A stretch of DNA of 64,000 bases from assembly GCA_035536235.1 (NCBI GenBank), contig DATLOQ010000123.1:4132-68131 (forward strand). The letters are read 5' to 3'. Of the stretch, positions 113 through 16,358 are shown in pieces. This DNA is from Mycobacteriales bacterium (lineage in GTDB: Bacteria; Actinomycetota; Actinomycetes; BP-191). Position 1 is the stretch's first letter. Each line of letters begins with the position of its first letter. The notes under the pieces were generated by a model. That model ran no database searches. It was not told where the DNA came from and was given only the letters and a program-made list of their open reading frames with translations. The position numbers and the translations under genes are program-made.

Positions 113-1333
113 GTGATCAGCGTGCGCATCGCTCTTGCGGTGCTTCTGGCGTCGTCCAGCCTCAGCGGATGTGGTCGCGGCAGCACGTCGAGCGACGACG
201 TCGTCCGGGTCGTGGTGAGCGCCCCTCTGACTCGGTCGCCGTGGGTCGGCGAATTCCTCGACCGTGGCGCTCGGCTGGCGACGGAGGAGATCAACGCCGC
301 GGGCGGGATCGAGGTCGGCGACGTGAAGTTGAAGATCGAGCTCGACGTCCGCGACCATGCGGGATCCGCCCAGACGGCGCAGGCGCACGCCCGCGACGCC
401 GTCGACAAGGGGGCGGCACTGCTCATCAGCGACGGCATCGGGGCAGTCGCGGTGAGCCAGGTGACTGGCCCGGCGGCGCTGCCGACGGTGATCACGTTCG
501 AAGGCGGCACCGACCTCGTCGACGAGGACTCGCGCCCGACGCTGTTCCGGCTGGCACCGGCCAACCGCCCGATGACCATGCGCCTCGCCGACTACCTGGC
601 CGACAGAGCGAGCAAAGTCGCTGTGCTGCATGACGACACGTCGTACGGCCAGGACGGTGCGGCGGAGCTCGCTAAAGCCTTCGCGCGCAACGAGACCGCT
701 GTCGTCGCGACGGTCGAGATTCCCGCCGGAGCTGCCGACGTCGCGCCGCAGGTGCTGCGCGCTCGGCGCACTGGGGCGGACACCGTGGTGGTGTGGGCGC
801 GCGCACCGGTCGTCGCTGCCGTGGTGCAGGCCGCCCGCCGCTCGGGCTGGACGGTCCCGCTCTTCGCCGGTCCGACCGCCGAGGATCCGCTGGTGCGCCA
901 GCAGCTCGCCGACCGGCCGGAGTGGGTGGATGGGCTGACCTTCGTGTCCTTCCGCATCACAGCCGAGGTCGGCGCCGAACCGTGGCAGAAGTTCCGCGCC
1001 GCCTTTGAGAAGAGGTTCGGCCCCGACGAGATCGGCGTGGTGTCCGACGGCACCCCAGTGGTGCAGCCGCCGGACTGGGCGATGTACCCCTACGACGCGG
1101 TCTACCTGCTCAAAGCGGCACTGGAGCGCTCCGACTCACTCGGCCAGCCGCTCGTCGACGCGTTCAACTCGGTTTTCATCACCGGTGCCAACGGCGACGA
1201 GCGCAGCTTCGGCCCGCAGAACCACGAAGGCGTGTCGCAGGACGACATGTACTTCGGGCGCTTCGACCGCATGCGCTTCCAGCCGGTGACCGACGACATC
1301 CTCTCGGGGAACCTCCCGCCGATTCCGCAGTAG
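113..1333 (+). CDS. ABC transporter substrate-binding lipoprotein, branched-chain amino acid (LivK/LivJ-like) family
   Basis: 406 aa. N-terminal signal with lipobox LSGC. Periplasmic binding protein type I fold with LivK-like motifs (ISDGIGAVA, VLHDDTSYGQ). Confidence 0.75.
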   Translation: MISVRIALAVLLASSSLSGCGRGSTSSDDVVRVVVSAPLTRSPWVGEFLDRGARLATEEINAAGGIEVGDVKLKIELDVRDHAGSAQTAQAHARDAVDKGAALLISDGIGAVAVSQVTGPAALPTVITFEGGTDLVDEDSRPTLFRLAPANRPMTMRLADYLADRASKVAVLHDDTSYGQDGAAELAKAFARNETAVVATVEIPAGAADVAPQVLRARRTGADTVVVWARAPVVAAVVQAARRSGWTVPLFAGPTAEDPLVRQQLADRPEWVDGLTFVSFRITAEVGAEPWQKFRAAFEKRFGPDEIGVVSDGTPVVQPPDWAMYPYDAVYLLKAALERSDSLGQPLVDAFNSVFITGANGDERSFGPQNHEGVSQDDMYFGRFDRMRFQPVTDDILSGNLPPIPQ

Positions 1334-9964: not shown

Positions 9965-10609
9965 TCAGAGGCGAAGGCGCCGGTTGAGTCCGTCCAGGAC
10001 TGCCCGGACGACAGCATCAGCCTGGTCGCCGCGCACCAGGGCTGAGCCGGTGAGCATGCTCTCGCCGTCGGCGGTGAGCAGCTGGATCACGCAGATCGCC
10101 ACCTCGCGCCCGCCCACGTGGCTGACCTGCGCATGCTCCAGGTCCGCGGCCGCAAGCGGGAACAGCTGCATGGCAGCCGCCAGGGTGGCCCGACCGATCA
10201 GTCGAATGCGGCTGCTCGGCGTGGCCGGCGCCGTTGCTGTCCCGTCGTAGAGCTGACCATTGCAGGCGAGGGTGACAGTGGCCGAGGCGTGCAGGCCGGC
10301 GGTGTTGGCGGTCACGCCGGCGACGAGCACCCGGACGGTGCTGGTGCCCTGGGTCTCGGCCTGGGGTGTCTCGTCATCATCGAACTGCACGATGGACACG
10401 ATGCGGTGGTCCAGCTCGAGGTCGAATTGGGCCATCGCCACTGACTGGATGTCGCGCACCAGAGCCTTGGGGCTCTTCCCCCGGTCGCTCAGGACGTGGA
10501 TCTCAGTGGGTGCTGCTGCACCGTCGGTGACGACCCGGGCAGCCTGGACACCCGGTAGTCGACCGATTGTTGCCTCGAGGTCGGGGAGCAGCCGCAGTGT
10601 GGTGACCAT
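9965..10609 (-). CDS. Hypothetical protein with apparent internal duplication
   Basis: 214 aa. Two ~90-aa halves with similar patterns (EIHVLSDRGKSPKALVRDIQSVA versus EVAICVIQLLTADGESMLTGSALVRGDQADAVV). No family recognised. Confidence 0.5.
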   Translation of the reverse strand: MVTTLRLLPDLEATIGRLPGVQAARVVTDGAAAPTEIHVLSDRGKSPKALVRDIQSVAMAQFDLELDHRIVSIVQFDDDETPQAETQGTSTVRVLVAGVTANTAGLHASATVTLACNGQLYDGTATAPATPSSRIRLIGRATLAAAMQLFPLAAADLEHAQVSHVGGREVAICVIQLLTADGESMLTGSALVRGDQADAVVRAVLDGLNRRLRL

Positions 10610-10617
10610 GGGTGTGG

Positions 10618-11070
10618 TTAGCCGAGGTGCGCGAGCCGGGCAGCAACGGCGCTGCGGCGAATCTCGAGCAGATCGTCAGTCGCTGCGTCCGGGGACGGTG
10701 CGGGCGCTGCCGGCGGCTGTCCGACAGGGGTGTCCGCGGGCAGCGGCGCAGCGTCGGCGAAGTCGATCTCGGCCGGGCCGTGGCTGCGCCACGCATCGCT
10801 GCCTCGGTCCGTCGCGGCCTGCGCCTCTGCCTGAGCCCGGGCCATCACGTCGAGAACGGCTGGCAGGGCAGAAGCGGCGTACTGCTTGGTGTTGTGCACC
10901 GACTCCCGTTGCCAGAAGCGCAGCGCCCGGGCGGTCATCTCGTCGAGCCCGGCAGCGGCGAGCACCGCGTCGAACGTGGTCGTCGCCGGGTCGTCGAACC
11001 CGGCCATGACCTCCCAGGCGAGCCCCGCACGGTCCACGGTCATGCGAAGTGTCCATTCGTCAGCCAGCAT
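10618..11070 (-). CDS. Hypothetical protein
   Basis: ORF 10618..11175. The likely start is the internal Met MLADEWTLRM. Ala/Pro-rich acidic C-terminus. No family recognised. Confidence 0.4.
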   Translation of the reverse strand: MLADEWTLRMTVDRAGLAWEVMAGFDDPATTTFDAVLAAAGLDEMTARALRFWQRESVHNTKQYAASALPAVLDVMARAQAEAQAATDRGSDAWRSHGPAEIDFADAAPLPADTPVGQPPAAPAPSPDAATDDLLEIRRSAVAARLAHLG

Positions 11071-11377
11071 CCGACGATGCAGGCTAGCGCCGGGGGCGAC
11101 CCGAACCGGGGATCTCTCCACGACAAAACTGGGTGTTGCCAGAGTGACTGATGTGCGCCACGATGCTGCGAGCAACGGACAAAGCGGGCAAAGGTGGGGG
11201 GCGCACGGCCCTGCACTCAGCGTGCGGGATTCCGCGGCGTGGCACGTGACAACTACAGACTGAGTGGTCGGGACCGGCAGTGTCGGCTAGCTCTTCTTCG
11301 CATCACGAGCGGAGCGGATTATGCGTGAGCCCTTAGCGGTGCTCGCGACATAAATCTGCGAAGGGGGCGATAGCCCA

Positions 11378-11455
11378 ATGAAGAAGATCGCTGCTGTGTT
11401 CGGTGGACTGACTGCACTATTCATGTCCGCAGGCGCTGGCTGGAACTGGGGTTAG
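11378..11455 (+). CDS. Candidate 25-aa hydrophobic micro-ORF (MKKIAAVFGGLTALFMSAGAGWNWG)
   Basis: ATG preceded by AAGGGGG about 10 nt upstream. The local GC is low, and codon GC3 is atypically low for this genome. It sits in the 338-bp leader of the HD-GYP operon. Confidence 0.25.
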   Translation: MKKIAAVFGGLTALFMSAGAGWNWG

Positions 11456-11512
11456 TCGTCTCTGCCGGTCCCCGCCACTCTGTCTGTAGCCCCCGGCGAA
11501 AGTGACTTCGGC

Positions 11513-12850
11513 ATGCGGGAGCTTCCCCCTCGCGCTCGCGCCTACTTCTGGGCGGTCTGCGCGCTCGCGGGCGCAGTGCTCGTCGGCTCCGGCTTCGCTC
11601 TTCGCGACGCCACGGCGGCGGACCTCGCTCAGGTCGCGATCCTGCTGCTCCTCCTCGGTGCGGTGAACAGCTTCTCCACCCGCACCTCGGCCGACATCAC
11701 CGTGTCGATCGGCTTCATCGTCTGCTTGGCGTCGGTGGTGCTTCTCGGGCCCTCCGGTGCCGCGATCGTGGCCGCTGCCGGCGGCACGACTGGCCCCCTG
11801 CTCTACAAGCGGGTGTTCAACTCAGCGCAGTACGTCCTCGCGTCGTGGATGTCAGCGATCGGGTGGGCGCTCGTGCTCGGCGCGGCGCGCCTGGGCAACC
11901 AGCCCGAGTGGCGGGTCCTCGTCGCTGCGTCCTTCGCGACAGTGGTCTTCTGCTTGGTCAACTCACTTCTCGTGGCCTGCATCATCTCGCTGACGACCTC
12001 CATCTCCGTCGCGCGGGTGTGGTCGGGCACGCTGTCCTGGGGCACCTTCACTTATCTCGGTTATGGCCTGCTCGGCGTCCTCATGGCGCAGCTGTATCGC
12101 AACGTAGGGCCCGCGACATCGATCTTGTTCCTGGCGCCGTTGCTCGTGGCGCGGAGGGCGTTCGCCAACTACGCCGAGCTGCGCAATGCCTACGACGGCA
12201 CGGTGTCTGCACTCGTTCAGGCCGTCGAGACCAAGGACTACTACACGCGCGGCCACTCCGAGCGGGTCGCCCGGGTCACCGAGATGGTGGCCCGCGAGTG
12301 GGGCATGCGGGAGGACCGGGTCCAAGTCATCAAGATCGCCGGAATGCTGCACGACGTCGGCAAGCTGGGGGTGCCGACCCGGGTGCTTCAGAAGCAGGGC
12401 AAGCTCAGCCAACTCGAGTTCGAGGCGATCAAGATTCATCCGCTGCGGGGCTTCGAGATGCTGAGCGAGATCGACTTCCTGAGCGAGGCGATCAGCGGCG
12501 TCTACCACCACCACGAGCGGATGGATGGCCGTGGCTATCCGCTGGGGCTGGTCGGTGAGGAGATTCCGGAGTTCGCTCGCATCATCATGGTGGCCGACGC
12601 CTTCGACTCGATGACGTCCACCCGGGCCTACCGCCAGGCGAAGTCTGTGGCGGACGCCGTCATCGAGCTGCGCCGCTGCCAGGGCGACCAGTTCGACGAG
12701 AACGTCGTCGACTGCCTGGTCGCTGGTATCGACAAGCACGGGTGGTCACCGCACCCCGAGGACTTCTTCGGGGAGCAGGTCGACCGCGACGGCCGGCCGA
12801 TGGTCCAGGCCGCCGCGGCCGGGGCGGAGGGCGTCCGTGAAGAGGACTGA
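11513..12850 (+). CDS. 7TM membrane receptor fused to HD-GYP phosphodiesterase domain (c-di-GMP PDE family)
   Basis: About 7 predicted TM helices in the first 215 aa. HD motif MLHDVGK and a complete HHERMDGRGYP (HD-GYP) signature. Confidence 0.8.
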   Translation: MRELPPRARAYFWAVCALAGAVLVGSGFALRDATAADLAQVAILLLLLGAVNSFSTRTSADITVSIGFIVCLASVVLLGPSGAAIVAAAGGTTGPLLYKRVFNSAQYVLASWMSAIGWALVLGAARLGNQPEWRVLVAASFATVVFCLVNSLLVACIISLTTSISVARVWSGTLSWGTFTYLGYGLLGVLMAQLYRNVGPATSILFLAPLLVARRAFANYAELRNAYDGTVSALVQAVETKDYYTRGHSERVARVTEMVAREWGMREDRVQVIKIAGMLHDVGKLGVPTRVLQKQGKLSQLEFEAIKIHPLRGFEMLSEIDFLSEAISGVYHHHERMDGRGYPLGLVGEEIPEFARIIMVADAFDSMTSTRAYRQAKSVADAVIELRRCQGDQFDENVVDCLVAGIDKHGWSPHPEDFFGEQVDRDGRPMVQAAAAGAEGVREED

Positions 12851-14126
12851 GCCCGTCGTCGTACGGCGACTGCTGCTCGTCCTGGCCGTCGGGGTCGCCG
12901 CCGCTGCCGCTGCCGCCTCGATCATCGGCGCGCGCGAGATGAGCTCCCCGGCCGACTACCAAGCGGCGATCGCCTTCTGTTGTCTCGTCGCCGTAGGGGA
13001 GCTGCTGCGGGTCAACCTCCCGGGCGACCGTGACGCGGCCCCGATCGGCGGAGCCGCGGTCATCGGCTACGCGCTGCTCGTGCGAGTAGACGGCGAGGTC
13101 GCGCGGCATGCTGCCGCCGACGTCATCACGGTGGCAGCGGCCGGCTGCTTTCTCACCGCAATAGTCCACCTGCTGGCCCAGCGTGATCCTCGTCCGGTTG
13201 ACATTGCTGCGCGGATTCTTGGCGCCGCCACCACCGCCTGGCTCTTCCGCCCGTGGCTCGCCGACCATCCGGCGGAGGCGCTGGGTCGGCCGTCGACGTC
13301 GCTTGTGGTCGCCATGGCCATCGCCACTCTCGCCGGTGGGGCGGTCGGCACGACTGTGGCCGCGTGCGAACGCGCCGCGCGCTTGCGAGCGCCCTTCATC
13401 GCGACGCTGCGCAACGAGGTGCAGGCGCAGCTGGGCCTCGGCGCCGCCATGGCGTCGACCGGAATCCTGCTGGCGCTTTCGGTGCCCAAGCTGGGCTTGT
13501 GGGCGCTGCTCGTATTCATGGGCCCGCTGCTCGTGACGCAGTTCTCATTCCGGCGCTATGCGTCGATCTCGGCGACGTACCGGCAGACGATCCGTGCCTT
13601 GTCCCGCGTGACGGAGGTGAGCGGGCACGTCGAGACAGGTCACAGCCGTCGGGTGATGAACCTCTCGGTGGCCATGGGGCGCGAGTTCGGCATGACGGAG
13701 TCGGAGCTGCTCGACCTCGAGTACGCCGCGCTGATGCACGACATCGGCCAGCTCTCGCTCACCGACCCCATCCCCCGTGGGTCGACTCTCACCGTCGCAC
13801 CGTCAGAGCGTCGCCGCATCGCCGAGCTCGGCGCGGCCGTCATCCGCTCTACGGGCACCATGGACCGGGTCGCGCACATCGTCGGCTGTCAGGCCAACGC
13901 CTATCGCAAGATGCGCGAGACCGTCGACGTCGAGGTGCCGTTGCCGTCTCGCATCGTGAAGACCGCGTCGGCGTACGACGACCTCATCACCGCAAGCCGC
14001 GTTGTCCGCGGAAAGCGCGCGTCGTGGGACGCCCTGGAGCGGCTGCGTCTGGGGATGGCCTACGAGTACGACCCGCGGGTGATCGAAGCCCTGACCAAAG
14101 TCCTGCGGCGCAGCGGCGACCTCTGA
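12837..14126 (+). CDS. 7TM membrane protein with degenerate HD(-GYP)-like domain (paralog of the upstream gene)
   Basis: Same architecture. The HD motif LMHDIGQ is present, but no GYP motif and no HHE.D metal-site equivalents were recognised. It overlaps the upstream gene by 14 nt. Confidence 0.75.
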   Translation: MKRTEPVVVRRLLLVLAVGVAAAAAAASIIGAREMSSPADYQAAIAFCCLVAVGELLRVNLPGDRDAAPIGGAAVIGYALLVRVDGEVARHAAADVITVAAAGCFLTAIVHLLAQRDPRPVDIAARILGAATTAWLFRPWLADHPAEALGRPSTSLVVAMAIATLAGGAVGTTVAACERAARLRAPFIATLRNEVQAQLGLGAAMASTGILLALSVPKLGLWALLVFMGPLLVTQFSFRRYASISATYRQTIRALSRVTEVSGHVETGHSRRVMNLSVAMGREFGMTESELLDLEYAALMHDIGQLSLTDPIPRGSTLTVAPSERRRIAELGAAVIRSTGTMDRVAHIVGCQANAYRKMRETVDVEVPLPSRIVKTASAYDDLITASRVVRGKRASWDALERLRLGMAYEYDPRVIEALTKVLRRSGDL

Positions 14127-14179: not shown

Positions 14180-14965
14180 CTAGCCGCGAGGATCAGGGCG
14201 AGACGCCCCCCGGAACCAGGGGGCAGCGGGCTGCACGGGAGCCTGAGCACGGGTGGGGGCGTGGGCGGGCGGTGGAGCGGTGGGGACGTGGGCGTGCGCG
14301 TGCGGTGGAGCGGCTGTGGCGGGGCCGGGGGAGGCGGTGATCTGGCGGGAGCGTCGGCCAACGCCGGGCCGGATCATGGCGTTGGTGACGAGCACACCGA
14401 TGCCGGCTGCTAGGACGACGTCGCCGACCGAGACGATGTTGGAACCGCGACGCACCGGAAGAGGAGCCGGGATCACGTCGGTGAGCGGACGCAGCGCCGT
14501 GCGCCGAGTAGCGATCTCGTGCTTGGCATCCTCGCCCCGGGTGAGCGGGCTCAGGTCGACCCCGACCCTTGCGGCCGCCCACTGGGACACCGGCATCGCG
14601 CCGTTGGCCGAGACGGCGATGGCGTTGAGCAGGAATCCTGCGGCGATGAGCGGCATCCCGCGCAGGTGCCGATTGCGGAGCACGAAGGCAGTGATCAGCA
14701 AGGCTGAGAGCACGAGCCCGGTGACATAGAGCACCCGGGGGGAGGGCAGGTCGAGTGCCCCGGCGAACGCGCCGAGCGCCTGCACGCCGAGCGCCAGAAA
14801 GATGAGCGGCCACCCCGGCAGCTCCAGCACCGAGAGCCGGGTCAGGGAGCCACCGCGCGCATAGCCGATGGCGACGGCGGCGAGCACGACCAGAAGCACG
14901 ATGGGAATCTCGACCACCTCCTCCGTCCGGCGCCGTGGCTGTCGAGGGGCCTCGATAGGGTGCAC
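14180..14965 (-). CDS. Integral membrane hypothetical protein with His/Pro/Ala-rich C-terminal tail
   Basis: 5-6 hydrophobic helices. C-terminal PPHAHAHVPTAPPPAHAPT. Start uncertain; it was trimmed relative to ORF 14180..15076 because of the divergent accC-like start at 15012. Confidence 0.5.
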   Translation of the reverse strand: MHPIEAPRQPRRRTEEVVEIPIVLLVVLAAVAIGYARGGSLTRLSVLELPGWPLIFLALGVQALGAFAGALDLPSPRVLYVTGLVLSALLITAFVLRNRHLRGMPLIAAGFLLNAIAVSANGAMPVSQWAAARVGVDLSPLTRGEDAKHEIATRRTALRPLTDVIPAPLPVRRGSNIVSVGDVVLAAGIGVLVTNAMIRPGVGRRSRQITASPGPATAAPPHAHAHVPTAPPPAHAPTRAQAPVQPAAPWFRGASRPDPRG

Positions 14966-15011
14966 CGGCGTCCGCTGCAGCCACGGTAGCTCCCGGGCGG
15001 CGTAGGAGGGT

Positions 15012-16358
15012 GTGACGTTGTTCGAGACGATTTTGGTGGCCAATCGCGGCGAGATCGCCCGCCGGGTGATCCGCACCGCTCAGCAGCTGGGCGTGAAAGC
15101 GGTCGCGGTCTACTCCGAAGCCGACGCCAAGTCGCTGCATGTGCGCGACGCCGACGATGCAGTGCTCCTGGGACCGGCCCCGCCCGCGGAGTCCTACCTC
15201 GACGCCGCCAAGGTGATCGAGGCGGCTCGCCAGAGCGGGGCGCAGGCGATCCACCCGGGGTACGGCTTCCTCTCTGAGAATGCGAGCTTCGCTGCCGCTG
15301 TCGCGGCGGCCGGCCTCGTCTGGATCGGCCCGTCGCCGGAGTGCATCTCGGTGATGGGCGACAAGATCAACGCCCGCAATCTCATGGAAGCAGCCGGGGT
15401 CCCGGTGGCGTCCGGCACGCCCACCCCGCTCTCCGACGTCGAGGAGGCCGTCGCCGAAGGCGCGCGCATCGGCTACCCGCTCATGGTGAAGGCCACAGCG
15501 GGCGGCGGCGGCATCGGGATGAGCGTGGCGTACGACGAGGCCTCGCTGCGCACGTCCTTCGAGACCGCGCGGACTCGCGCAGAGCGGTTCTTCGGCAACC
15601 CCGCGATTCTGCTCGAGCGCTACCTCCCTCGCGCGCGGCACGTTGAGGTGCAGATCCTCGGCTTGGCCGACGGTCGGGTGGTCGCGCTGGGTGAGCGCGA
15701 CTGCTCGGTGCAGCGTCGCCACCAGAAGGTCCTCGAGGAGACACCGTCCCCCGGTGTGGACGGGCCGCTGCGGGCGCGGATGCTTGCTGCGGCGGTCCGG
15801 GCCGGCGAAGCCGTGGGATACCGCAATGCGGGCACGGTCGAGTGCCTCGTTGCCGACGGTGACTTCGTCTTCCTCGAGATGAACACCCGGCTTCAGGTCG
15901 AGCATCCGATCACCGAGCTGGTCACCGGGCTCGACTTGGTGGCGGAGCAGCTACGGGTCGCCGCTGACCTGCCACCGGGCTTCGACCCCGACGCGATCAC
16001 GACAAGCGGGCATGCCATCGAGATGCGCGTCTACGCCGAGGACCCCCTGCGCTTCCTACCCGGACCGGGGGAGATCAACGTGTGGCGCGAGCCGAGCGGC
16101 AACGGCATCCGCGTGGACTCCGGTTACGGCGAGGGGGACACGGTCACGCCGTACTACGACCCCCTGATGGCCAAGCTCTGTGTCCACGCGGACGGTCGTG
16201 CCGCCGCGCTGGACAAGGCCCGTGCGGCGGTGGAGGGATTCGAGATCGTCGGCCCGAAGAACAACCTGCCCTTCTTCCTCGAGCTGCTCGCCAACGAGGA
16301 GTTCGCGAGCGGCGACTACGACACCCGTCTCGTCGAGCGGATGCGGGCAAAGCAGTGA
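15012..16358 (+). CDS. Biotin carboxylase (ATP-grasp), stand-alone subunit
   Basis: ILVANRGEIA. Complete ATP-grasp and biotin carboxylase N-terminal, central and C-terminal domains. No fused BCCP. GTG start at 15012 with an AGGAGGG Shine-Dalgarno. Confidence 0.9.
   Translation: MTLFETILVANRGEIARRVIRTAQQLGVKAVAVYSEADAKSLHVRDADDAVLLGPAPPAESYLDAAKVIEAARQSGAQAIHPGYGFLSENASFAAAVAAAGLVWIGPSPECISVMGDKINARNLMEAAGVPVASGTPTPLSDVEEAVAEGARIGYPLMVKATAGGGGIGMSVAYDEASLRTSFETARTRAERFFGNPAILLERYLPRARHVEVQILGLADGRVVALGERDCSVQRRHQKVLEETPSPGVDGPLRARMLAAAVRAGEAVGYRNAGTVECLVADGDFVFLEMNTRLQVEHPITELVTGLDLVAEQLRVAADLPPGFDPDAITTSGHAIEMRVYAEDPLRFLPGPGEINVWREPSGNGIRVDSGYGEGDTVTPYYDPLMAKLCVHADGRAAALDKARAAVEGFEIVGPKNNLPFFLELLANEEFASGDYDTRLVERMRAKQ

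Follow-up and report, generated by a model that had tools for sequence, protein, structure and literature searches.

What is the function of the atypical sequence that precedes a pair of HD-GYP genes in a Mycobacteriales bacterium? We addressed this question in a 64,000-nt stretch of contig DATLOQ010000123.1 (referred to here as the window), in which a preliminary description, made by reading the letters alone, had pointed to a leader with two micro-open reading frames (micro-ORFs) and had proposed that it was a leader-peptide regulator, a small membrane protein gene, a structured 5′ untranslated region (UTR), or the remnant of a horizontally acquired gene start. The leader lies directly upstream of two genes that resemble hdgA and hdgB, and it contains a conserved upstream ORF (uORF) enclosed by a large, covarying RNA structure. 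As the best explanation, which we hold with moderate confidence, we propose a cis-regulatory leader of an hdgA/hdgB-type operon built around the uORF, whose product would be a leader or arrest peptide. From the sequence comparisons reported here, the leader probably controls expression of the downstream genes.

The composition of the region is indeed unusual. The GC content of positions 11176 to 11512 falls to 0.623, whereas the window averages 0.700; just 0.9% of segments of 337 nt have so low a value. The left boundary that had been given for the leader, 11176, is merely the end of an overextended ORF with a TTG start (10618 to 11175, minus strand, 185 amino acids [aa]). Orthologues of this minus-strand neighbour are 133 to 165 aa long and begin at the equivalent of an ATG at 11043; the intergenic region therefore spans 11044 to 11512 (469 nt).

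The leader is conserved with its operon across actinomycetes

We aligned 21 leaders (alignment A4), consisting of the window and 20 other actinobacterial contigs, with sampling drawn mostly from metagenome-assembled genomes. A genome scan with the HD-GYP protein recovered orthologues in Mycobacteriales, Frankiales, and Acidothermaceae, and a metagenome scan with the invariant core of the leader recovered 6 true homologues among the 120 loci listed, the other approximately 114 being chance matches. When ten more distant HD-GYP orthologues (48 to 66% identity) were inspected, all ten carried the leader element, which is present in every one of the 21 orthologous loci that have upstream sequence. 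Conservation in relatives, which the preliminary description had named among the points on which its proposal could fall, is thus extensive: the element is kept in 20 independent relatives, with both covariation and a coding signature. Between the window and the homologous locus L001 (locus handles carry the prefix L), the leader is 90% identical at the nucleotide level over 284 nt while the HD-GYP proteins are 67% identical, so that the leader is better conserved than the genes that it precedes.

The distribution of the element follows that of the operon. Among the loci compared, the sequence motif formed by the arms of its long helix, P1 (described below), was seen in orthologous loci only; neither the 31 loci with distant HD-GYP genes nor the approximately 114 chance-match loci have it; no second copy of a P1 arm occurs elsewhere in the 64-kb window, and a search of a plasmid collection with the leader DNA returned no match. 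The suggestion that the region is what remains of a horizontally acquired gene start is contradicted by strict synteny across orders.

The uORF is maintained as a coding sequence

The larger of the two micro-ORFs (11378 to 11455, plus strand) is present as described and consists of 25 codons followed by TAG (stop at 11453 to 11455). It encodes MKKIAAVFGGLTALFMSAGAGWNWG, in which Trp22 (11441 to 11443) and Trp24 (11447 to 11449) lie close to the C terminus. A Shine-Dalgarno (SD)-like run of G residues, GAAGGGGG (11360 to 11367, plus strand), provides a usable ribosome-binding site (RBS), as had been claimed; its spacing, which had been called ideal, is slightly long, since the run ends 10 nt before the ATG. 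All 21 leaders have a G-rich SD sequence at this position (GGAGG, AAGGGG, or GGGGGG), and the mean unpaired probability of the uORF SD is 0.3 to 0.6 with P1 closed.

A homologous ORF of 20 to 25 codons is found at the same position in each of the 21 leaders. Insertions and deletions within it are in frame only (12 nt between clades), whereas those in the flanking variable regions are arbitrary. The peptides share the pattern M-[KSN]-x-[IL]-[AVT]-..., then [ST]-x-G-x-G-x-x-W-x-stop, with Trp at position −2 from the stop in 20 sequences and at position −1, as the last residue, in L170; about 7 of the 21 have another Trp, which does not adjoin this one but lies two codons before it. Ratios of nonsynonymous to synonymous change (Nei-Gojobori pN/pS) are 0.28, 0.54, and 0.53 in three groups and range from 0.04 to 0.5 between close pairs, and changes are in excess at third codon positions; the window and L001 uORFs, for example, differ by 6.5 synonymous and 3.5 nonsynonymous changes (Nei-Gojobori path averages). 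Because these ratios lie below 1 and third positions change in excess, the uORF appears to be translated into a peptide whose sequence matters. Purifying selection on a 25-codon ORF that is kept in frame and in its length class lends support to the earlier proposal of a leader-peptide regulator.

The codon usage of the uORF departs from that of its surroundings, as the preliminary description had remarked. GC content at third codon positions (GC3) is 0.58 to 0.60 in the uORF and 0.86 to 0.89 in the two downstream genes, and the codons CTA, GGA, and ACT, all used in the uORF, are rare or absent in three neighbouring genes. This difference extends to the family, where uORF GC3 averages 0.67 compared with 0.85. 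Such nonoptimal codons would fit either a timing device or constraints imposed by RNA structure.

The other micro-ORF (11321 to 11353, plus strand) can be read directly in the sequence as MREPLAVLAT, but it does not behave as a gene. TTG stands in place of its ATG in L001, L130, and L160, and clades B and C lack this start codon. The frame overlaps the RNA hairpin P4, where conservation tracks base pairing and not codons. We also considered a conserved ORF on the antisense strand and rejected it, since no frame is consistently open and the G-U pairs of the structure favor the plus strand.

A Trp-x-stop ending outlasts the hydrophobic character of the peptide

Orthologous operons were also found in three cultured Streptosporangiales: Nonomuraea gerenzanensis, Microbispora, and Streptosporangium roseum. 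In all three, an SD-preceded uORF of 16 to 35 codons lies just upstream and ends in PG(I/V)SWT-stop. The Nonomuraea uORF, 18 nt before hdgA, encodes MFKVTVARLLTAVVLITPVIMLMGGVVPPGVSWT; that of Microbispora encodes MFGKTVVRLTVALALLTPVVALVGLAAGTPGISWT; and that of S. roseum, with 16 codons, encodes MLKETVNPARPGISWT. The codons for the PG(V/I)SWT-stop motif differ synonymously among the three genera. In S. roseum the hydrophobic middle has been lost in frame, while the N-terminal codons and an identical PGISWT-stop are retained. Of all the arguments, the persistence of this ending without the hydrophobic middle speaks most strongly for a conserved core that would be a C-terminal Trp-x-stop read by the ribosome and not a membrane helix. 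Across actinomycete orders, the C terminus of the predicted peptide (G-hydrophobic-x-Trp-x-stop) is its most widely conserved feature. The conserved RNA boxes of the other leaders (AGCGG) are absent in these three Streptosporangiales, and a weak P1-like repeat was found in Microbispora only.

Several features of these loci stand apart from the comparison of the peptides. In Microbispora (L175), a perfect GC hairpin of 12 to 15 bp without a U-tract immediately follows the uORF stop (1440 to 1473), and a second, small hairpin (1480 to 1506) pairs the main AUG (CCGCAUU/AAUGCGG); the first of these hairpins overlaps the 3′ arm of the P1-like long-range repeat, an arrangement that resembles one of alternative structures. 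The Nonomuraea gerenzanensis record NZ_LT559118.1, the one useful find of a protein search of the plasmid collection, is filed in PLSDB as "plasmid I"; with 11.85 Mb, it is evidently the chromosome, and it has 10 annotated features.

Might the uORF product instead act as a protein? It could be a small amphipathic or membrane-associated protein that is coexpressed with HdgA and HdgB and modulates their sensor domain much as MgrB or SafA does, with the RNA tuning peptide synthesis or mRNA stability; we regard this as rather unlikely. Purifying selection does act on the whole peptide and not on a few codons, hydrophobic residues at positions 4, 8, 11/12, and 15/16 are conserved together with an N-terminal MKK, and the Nonomuraea ORF is placed before hdgA like an ordinary operon gene. 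The proposed partner proteins are membrane bound (PMC6205966). The preliminary description had likewise seen an isolated signal peptide or transmembrane (TM) helix. This holds for the window's own clade, in which, as in Nonomuraea and Microbispora, the peptide is TM-like and ends in Trp, a typical membrane-interface residue; it fails in clades B and C, which carry E, H, or R in midpeptide (e.g., MKSIATALGNIVEHMLSASTHFGWK and MSKIVSAVERFLSGGAGWSWG). The predicted hydrophobic look of the peptide is therefore clade specific. A conserved TM helix of the kind expected for the MgrB/SafA-like class is not found: in other clades the corresponding segment carries charges, and S. roseum has lost it, its 16 residues forming no hydrophobic core and keeping the PGISWT-stop intact. 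Peptide length varies from 16 to 35 residues while the distance from Trp to stop is constant, which is a property of translation and not of a folded peptide. Scans of Pfam and NCBIfam with four uORF peptides gave no match at an E value of ≤10. We also rejected mimicry of an HdgA TM segment: the peptides show no consistent similarity to the cognate HdgA proteins (z of approximately 0 in most pairs).

A covarying RNA domain encloses the uORF

The preliminary description had also raised the possibility of a structured 5′ UTR. The leader of the window carries a 37-nt inverted repeat (11253 to 11289 and 11453 to 11489, 84% complementary) that encloses both micro-ORFs and had been missed, and the predicted fold of the leader is far more stable than those of shuffled controls (z = −4.7). 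From the 21 aligned sequences, RNAalifold predicts a helix of 23 to 26 bp, P1, and a 7-bp hairpin, P4; both have pair probabilities above 0.9 when the sequences are folded singly. The 5′ arm of P1 (11255 to 11281, plus strand) has a nearly invariant inner half, GGGACCGGCAG, and a covarying outer half, and pairing in the window extends to 11289. The 3′ arm (11461 to 11487, plus strand) begins with CUGCCGGUCCCC, 5 nt past the uORF stop as annotated, although pairing in the window runs over the stop itself. The inner 11 bp (GGGAYCGGCAG/CUGCCGRUCCC) are nearly invariant, and the outer half covaries freely; across the 26 pairs of P1, 94.5% of cells are paired and 12 pairs have changed on both sides.

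Three further conserved segments were recognized. An ACAACU box (11249 to 11254, plus strand) lies directly 5′ of P1, is nearly invariant (ACAUCU in 1 of the 21 sequences), and belongs to UUGACAACU in most relatives. Within the domain, the box AGCGGAGCGGAU (11308 to 11319, plus strand) is identical in 20 of the 21 sequences and reads AGCGAAGCGGAG in L172. P4 follows, with a stem formed by 11324 to 11330 and 11341 to 11347 and a loop at 11331 to 11340 (CCUUAGCGGU, plus strand) that holds the third AGCG(G/A) motif of the leader; all seven of its pairs are 100% paired across the alignment, and three show compensatory changes. A possible helix P3, stacked under P4, would join GCGGAU (11314 to 11319) to AUCUGC (11354 to 11359, plus strand). 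Pairing of GCGGAU with AUCYGY is possible over 4 to 6 bp in all sequences; its 5′ side never varies and hence shows no covariation. A helix between AGCGGAGCGGAU and uORF codons 4 to 7, predicted from 12 sequences, was no longer predicted from 21 and was set aside, P3 being the more consistent pairing.

Taken together, P1 and P4 comprise 33 named pairs, of which 95.7% of cells are paired in the 21 sequences and 15 pairs have changed on both sides (75 cells). The covariation score is 0.352, compared with 0.150 ± 0.013 for shuffled alignments (0 of 500 reach the observed value) and 0.05 to 0.09 when partners are slid. G-U pairs are frequent, which indicates that selection acts on the plus-strand RNA. 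The domain closed by P1 measures approximately 235 nt and holds the AGCGGAGCGGAU box, P3 and P4, the SD sequence, and the uORF. This strong covariation supports the idea of a structured 5′ UTR; since the structure holds the uORF, the two proposals describe parts of one element.

The covariance search against Rfam that had been recommended was run and returned no match at an E value of ≤10 in positions 10900 to 11700. Among the homologues, Rfam 15 gave no hit at the gathering threshold in L003, L072, L168, or L170, and at an E value of ≤5 in L003, L072, and L168 the only match was an irrelevant miRNA elsewhere. By these comparisons, the leader is a predicted cis-regulatory element that lies outside Rfam, Pfam, and NCBIfam and is previously undescribed.

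One reading of these data assigns the regulatory role to the RNA itself, as a ligand- or protein-binding structure (riboswitch-like, with a cyclic dinucleotide as one conceivable ligand, or a platform to which RNase III or an RNA-binding protein attaches), with the uORF serving as the expression platform only. Leaders of cyclic di-GMP (c-di-GMP) turnover genes are a classic setting for riboswitches. The ACAACU box, inner P1, AGCGGAGCGGAU, and the P4 loop AGCG(G/A) are invariant among loci whose downstream proteins are only 47 to 67% identical to those of the window, there are three copies of the AGCGG motif, the fold of the leader as a whole is as stable as noted above, and a near-perfect 26-bp duplex would be a plausible RNase III substrate. 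We nonetheless judge this reading improbable: in addition to the lack of Rfam matches, the uORF persists in Streptosporangiales without the conserved RNA boxes, and an ORF that served only as an expression platform would have no need of the selected peptide sequence seen here; the sequence also points to no particular ligand.

Placement of the stop codon suggests how a ribosome could act on P1

We return to a regulatory uORF, which we favor, and to its position relative to P1. Measured from the uORF stop, CUGCC, the invariant core of the P1 3′ arm, is reached after 5 to 12 nt in 16 of the 21 leaders (6 nt in the window) and after 14 to 35 nt in the other five. With the stop this close to the 3′ strand in most leaders, a ribosome that is slow at Trp-x-stop would cover and melt inner P1. 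A C-rich spacer (11456 to 11512, plus strand) leads from the uORF stop to the main start codon; it is 48 to 87 nt long across the family, with a mean C content of 41% compared with 26% G. When the P1 3′ arm was freed in silico by blocking the 5′ arm, accessibility fell from 0.43 to 0.35 at the main SD (P = 0.003) and from 0.56 to 0.40 at the main AUG (P = 0.016), while blocking equal-length interior segments as a control had no effect on accessibility of the main RBS.

We propose that the uORF encodes a regulatory leader or arrest peptide and that the ribosome at its end would be the sensor. P1 would normally sequester the C-rich 3′ strand, and ribosome dwell time at Trp-x-stop would determine which of three states that strand takes: paired in P1, covered by the ribosome, or free. 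The state of the strand would in turn govern hdgA translation, through occlusion of the main RBS, and/or access of Rho or RNases to the C-rich spacer. In the Frankiales and Mycobacteriales lineages, the invariant RNA boxes suggest a second input, from a protein or small ligand, that may act on uORF initiation. Candidates for the signal are general translation stress and a metabolite, Trp or another, that the nascent chain would read.

A number of observations weigh against this proposal. We infer translation of the uORF and its regulatory effect from evolution only. A simpler model, in which the main RBS is hidden by P1 until a ribosome at the uORF stop exposes it, found no support, since forcing the stop region or 3′ arm to stay unpaired in silico did not change the predicted accessibility of the main SD or AUG. 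The effect of a freed P1 3′ arm on the main RBS is modest, and P1 is worth approximately 33 to 47 kcal/mol (as a difference in minimum free energy), which leaves its opening hard to explain. In the five leaders with a stop 14 to 35 nt from the 3′ strand (30 to 35 nt in L168 and L169), the ribosome would probably remain short of the stem. No intrinsic terminator was found in positions 10900 to 11700. Most leader peptides would have no need of a conserved N-terminal MKK(I/L) or of conserved hydrophobic periodicity, features that are also compatible with a functional small protein. Finally, the uORF occurs without the conserved RNA boxes in Streptosporangiales, so that it and P1 could work separately.

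There are also four more familiar kinds of element, a classical Trp attenuator, a type I toxin-antitoxin system, a miniature inverted-repeat transposable element (MITE), and a precursor of a ribosomally synthesized and posttranslationally modified peptide (RiPP) with a W-N-W motif as in darobactin, which we consider very unlikely even when taken together. Each has a resemblance to the leader: one or two Trp codons end the ORF, the window-clade peptide is hydrophobic, the 5′ and 3′ ends fold back around the ORF as in hok mRNA, the inverted repeat spans 37 nt, and the window peptide contains WNW. An attenuator, however, is difficult to reconcile with a single invariant Trp codon in place of a tandem run, with downstream genes that encode two HD_5/HD-GYP membrane proteins and not Trp biosynthesis enzymes, and with the lack of a terminator-like site in the interval given above. 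Toxin-antitoxin systems and MITEs are opposed by the occurrence of a single copy in the window, always at the same syntenic site in other genomes, and by compensatory changes that include G-U pairs, a mark of selection at the RNA level. For a type I toxin in particular, the peptides are not hydrophobic in most clades, and no antisense promoter was called at the locus. The hok/sok mRNAs share with the leader a long-range 5′-3′ helix around a small ORF; in contrast to them, the peptide family here does not amount to a conserved membrane toxin, the element is found as a single copy in strict synteny, and no antisense gene was seen. As for a RiPP, WxW is present in only a subset of the uORFs, and no maturase-type gene lies nearby, the neighbours being the HD-GYP pair, DUF5317, biotin carboxylase, and epimerase genes.

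A more specific form of the favored proposal is that the uORF represents a new class of arrest or sensor peptide (G-hydrophobic-x-Trp-x-stop), with which a small-molecule cue would stall the ribosome at the stop codon or beside it, and that the peptide, with the P1/P3/P4 RNA domain as a second input in Frankiales and Mycobacteriales, forms a dual sensor that gates hdgA/hdgB across Actinomycetes. We put this forward tentatively, as a possibility that may well prove wrong. Its candidate cues would include Trp or indole, a nucleotide second messenger, and membrane or translation stress.

The leader resembles known regulatory leaders in part

The uORF lies directly upstream of the HD-GYP genes, and its Trp is fixed relative to the stop in the 21 leaders and the three Streptosporangiales uORFs, as would be expected of a termination-arrest peptide. 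Arrest of a uORF at its stop codon has been established in TnaC and PepNL (PMC11890864). These serve as mechanistic precedents only for the Trp-x-stop leader. With TnaC, SpeFL, and PepNL, the leader shares a short uORF (14 to 34 codons) directly upstream of regulated genes, conserved residues placed relative to the stop, a C-rich spacer after the uORF, and, as proposed here, a ribosome at the stop as the regulatory species. In TnaC, the motif is W12...D16...P24-stop. Trp is thus a key residue in both, but the two peptides have no sequence similarity, the motif here being G-h-x-W-x-stop (h, hydrophobic); HD-GYP proteins are encoded downstream here and tryptophanase there; the 26-bp covarying stem and the invariant RNA boxes have no tna counterpart; and stalling in the present leader is putative.

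Other leaders combine an RNA and a short ORF. The whiB7 leader is an actinobacterial leader of several hundred nucleotides with a conserved uORF whose translation status probably sets downstream expression, and it acts through a terminator hairpin. It shares with ours the long, conserved actinobacterial leader and conserved uORF and differs in its peptide, RNA, and downstream gene, and in the terminator, which was not found here. The mgtA and mgtCBR leaders contain a Mg2+ riboswitch and the proline-rich uORFs mgtL and mgtP; they likewise unite a structured RNA and an embedded short ORF, whereas the present leader has no Rfam match, places a Trp by the stop in contrast to Pro codons, and occurs in another phylum before other genes. 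Control by a uORF or leader peptide is therefore a known kind of regulation; what is new is the family, its Trp-x-stop signature, and the pairing of that signature with a large covarying RNA domain.

A candidate promoter precedes the leader

Upstream of P1, a promoter-like block can be read from the sequence at 11136 to 11164 (plus strand), with TTGCCA (11136 to 11141), a 17-nt spacer, and CACGAT (11159 to 11164). As a candidate promoter, it would set the start of transcription near 11171 to 11173. Positions 11131 to 11195 are 86% identical to L001 2516 to 2581 despite diverged flanks, and an equivalent TTGAC-N18-TTCACT block is found 95 to 150 nt upstream of P1 in most homologous loci (e.g., L003, approximately 2545 to 2585, and L168, approximately 2085 to 2120). 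A generic sigma-70 scan did not call the block at 11136 to 11164. Position 2 of the second hexamer is not the usual A in most loci, which suggests that an alternative sigma factor may use the block. Pairs of extracytoplasmic function (ECF) sigma and anti-sigma factor genes are found close by in L170 to L172 and in L174 and L175.

The leader precedes an hdgA/hdgB-type operon in constant synteny

The first downstream gene (11513 to 12850, plus strand) encodes an HdgA-like protein with a membrane domain (a weak match to MASE9, 4e-5) and an intact HD-GYP domain (Pfam HD_5, 1e-37), and its translation carries both the HD and the GYP motifs. The protein is 100% identical to one in the record "MAG TPA: Mycobacteriales bacterium". 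The second gene (12837 to 14126, plus strand) encodes an HdgB-like protein with a membrane domain and a degenerate HD-GYP domain (HDIGQ, no GYP; Pfam HD_5, 4e-12). It starts with GTG at 12837 and thus shares 14 nt (12837 to 12850) with the end of the first gene, an overlap that suggests translational coupling.

The order of a membrane protein with an intact HD-GYP domain followed by one with a degenerate domain lacking GYP is that of hdgA and hdgB. In Streptomyces venezuelae, the pair consists of a protein with six TM segments and an intact HD-GYP domain and one with six TM segments and a degenerate HD-GYP domain without GYP (PMC6205966; MASE9 preprint); the likeness to our pair is one of architecture. 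There, hdgA is among the least expressed of the c-di-GMP genes, and its activating signal is unknown (PMC6205966). No leader or uORF is described for the S. venezuelae pair, and we found no description of either for HD-GYP genes in the literature searched.

Gene order around the leader is constant. Upstream lie an epimerase, HSP20, or ECF sigma factor gene, two minus-strand hypothetical genes, and an intergenic region of 470 to 660 nt; downstream lie the genes for the HD-GYP protein, the degenerate HD-GYP protein, DUF5317, and biotin carboxylase. In the window, the two hypothetical genes (9965 to 10609 and 10618 to 11043, minus strand) are divergent from the leader, and they are syntenic in essentially all loci of the Frankiales/Mycobacteriales type. 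Pfam and NCBIfam gave no match to either, nor did a PDB sequence search, which covered the promoter-proximal gene. These two genes may be linked functionally to the HD-GYP operon.

Some annotations near these genes call for comment. A 570-aa minus-strand ORF (14193 to 15905) has no Pfam match, while an overlapping 298-aa frame (14180 to 15076) carries DUF5317; the longer ORF is probably an artefact of high GC content, as the DUF5317 frame fits the synteny elsewhere. In S. roseum, an extra 57-aa ORF, not seen in other loci, lies between the hdgA-like and hdgB-like genes (L174 2853 to 3026). In L169, a 24-aa gene that matches Pfam PF26427 (HR_L37) lies between the epimerase and HSP20 genes (114 to 188, minus strand) and is unrelated to the leader.

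Significance for HD-GYP regulation in actinomycetes

The HD-GYP phosphodiesterases of actinomycetes, hdgA and hdgB in Streptomyces, are conserved yet almost silent (PMC6205966). The leader offers a concrete, mutable handle on when these genes switch on. Its uORF is a candidate new family for the short list of bacterial regulatory nascent peptides, with an unusual signature, an invariant Trp one residue before the stop, that is retained across orders in versions of 16 to 35 codons, and the leader contributes a new structured RNA motif with no entry in Rfam. Peptide and RNA alike are directly testable in cultured relatives, namely, Nonomuraea, Microbispora, Streptosporangium roseum, and Acidothermaceae B102.

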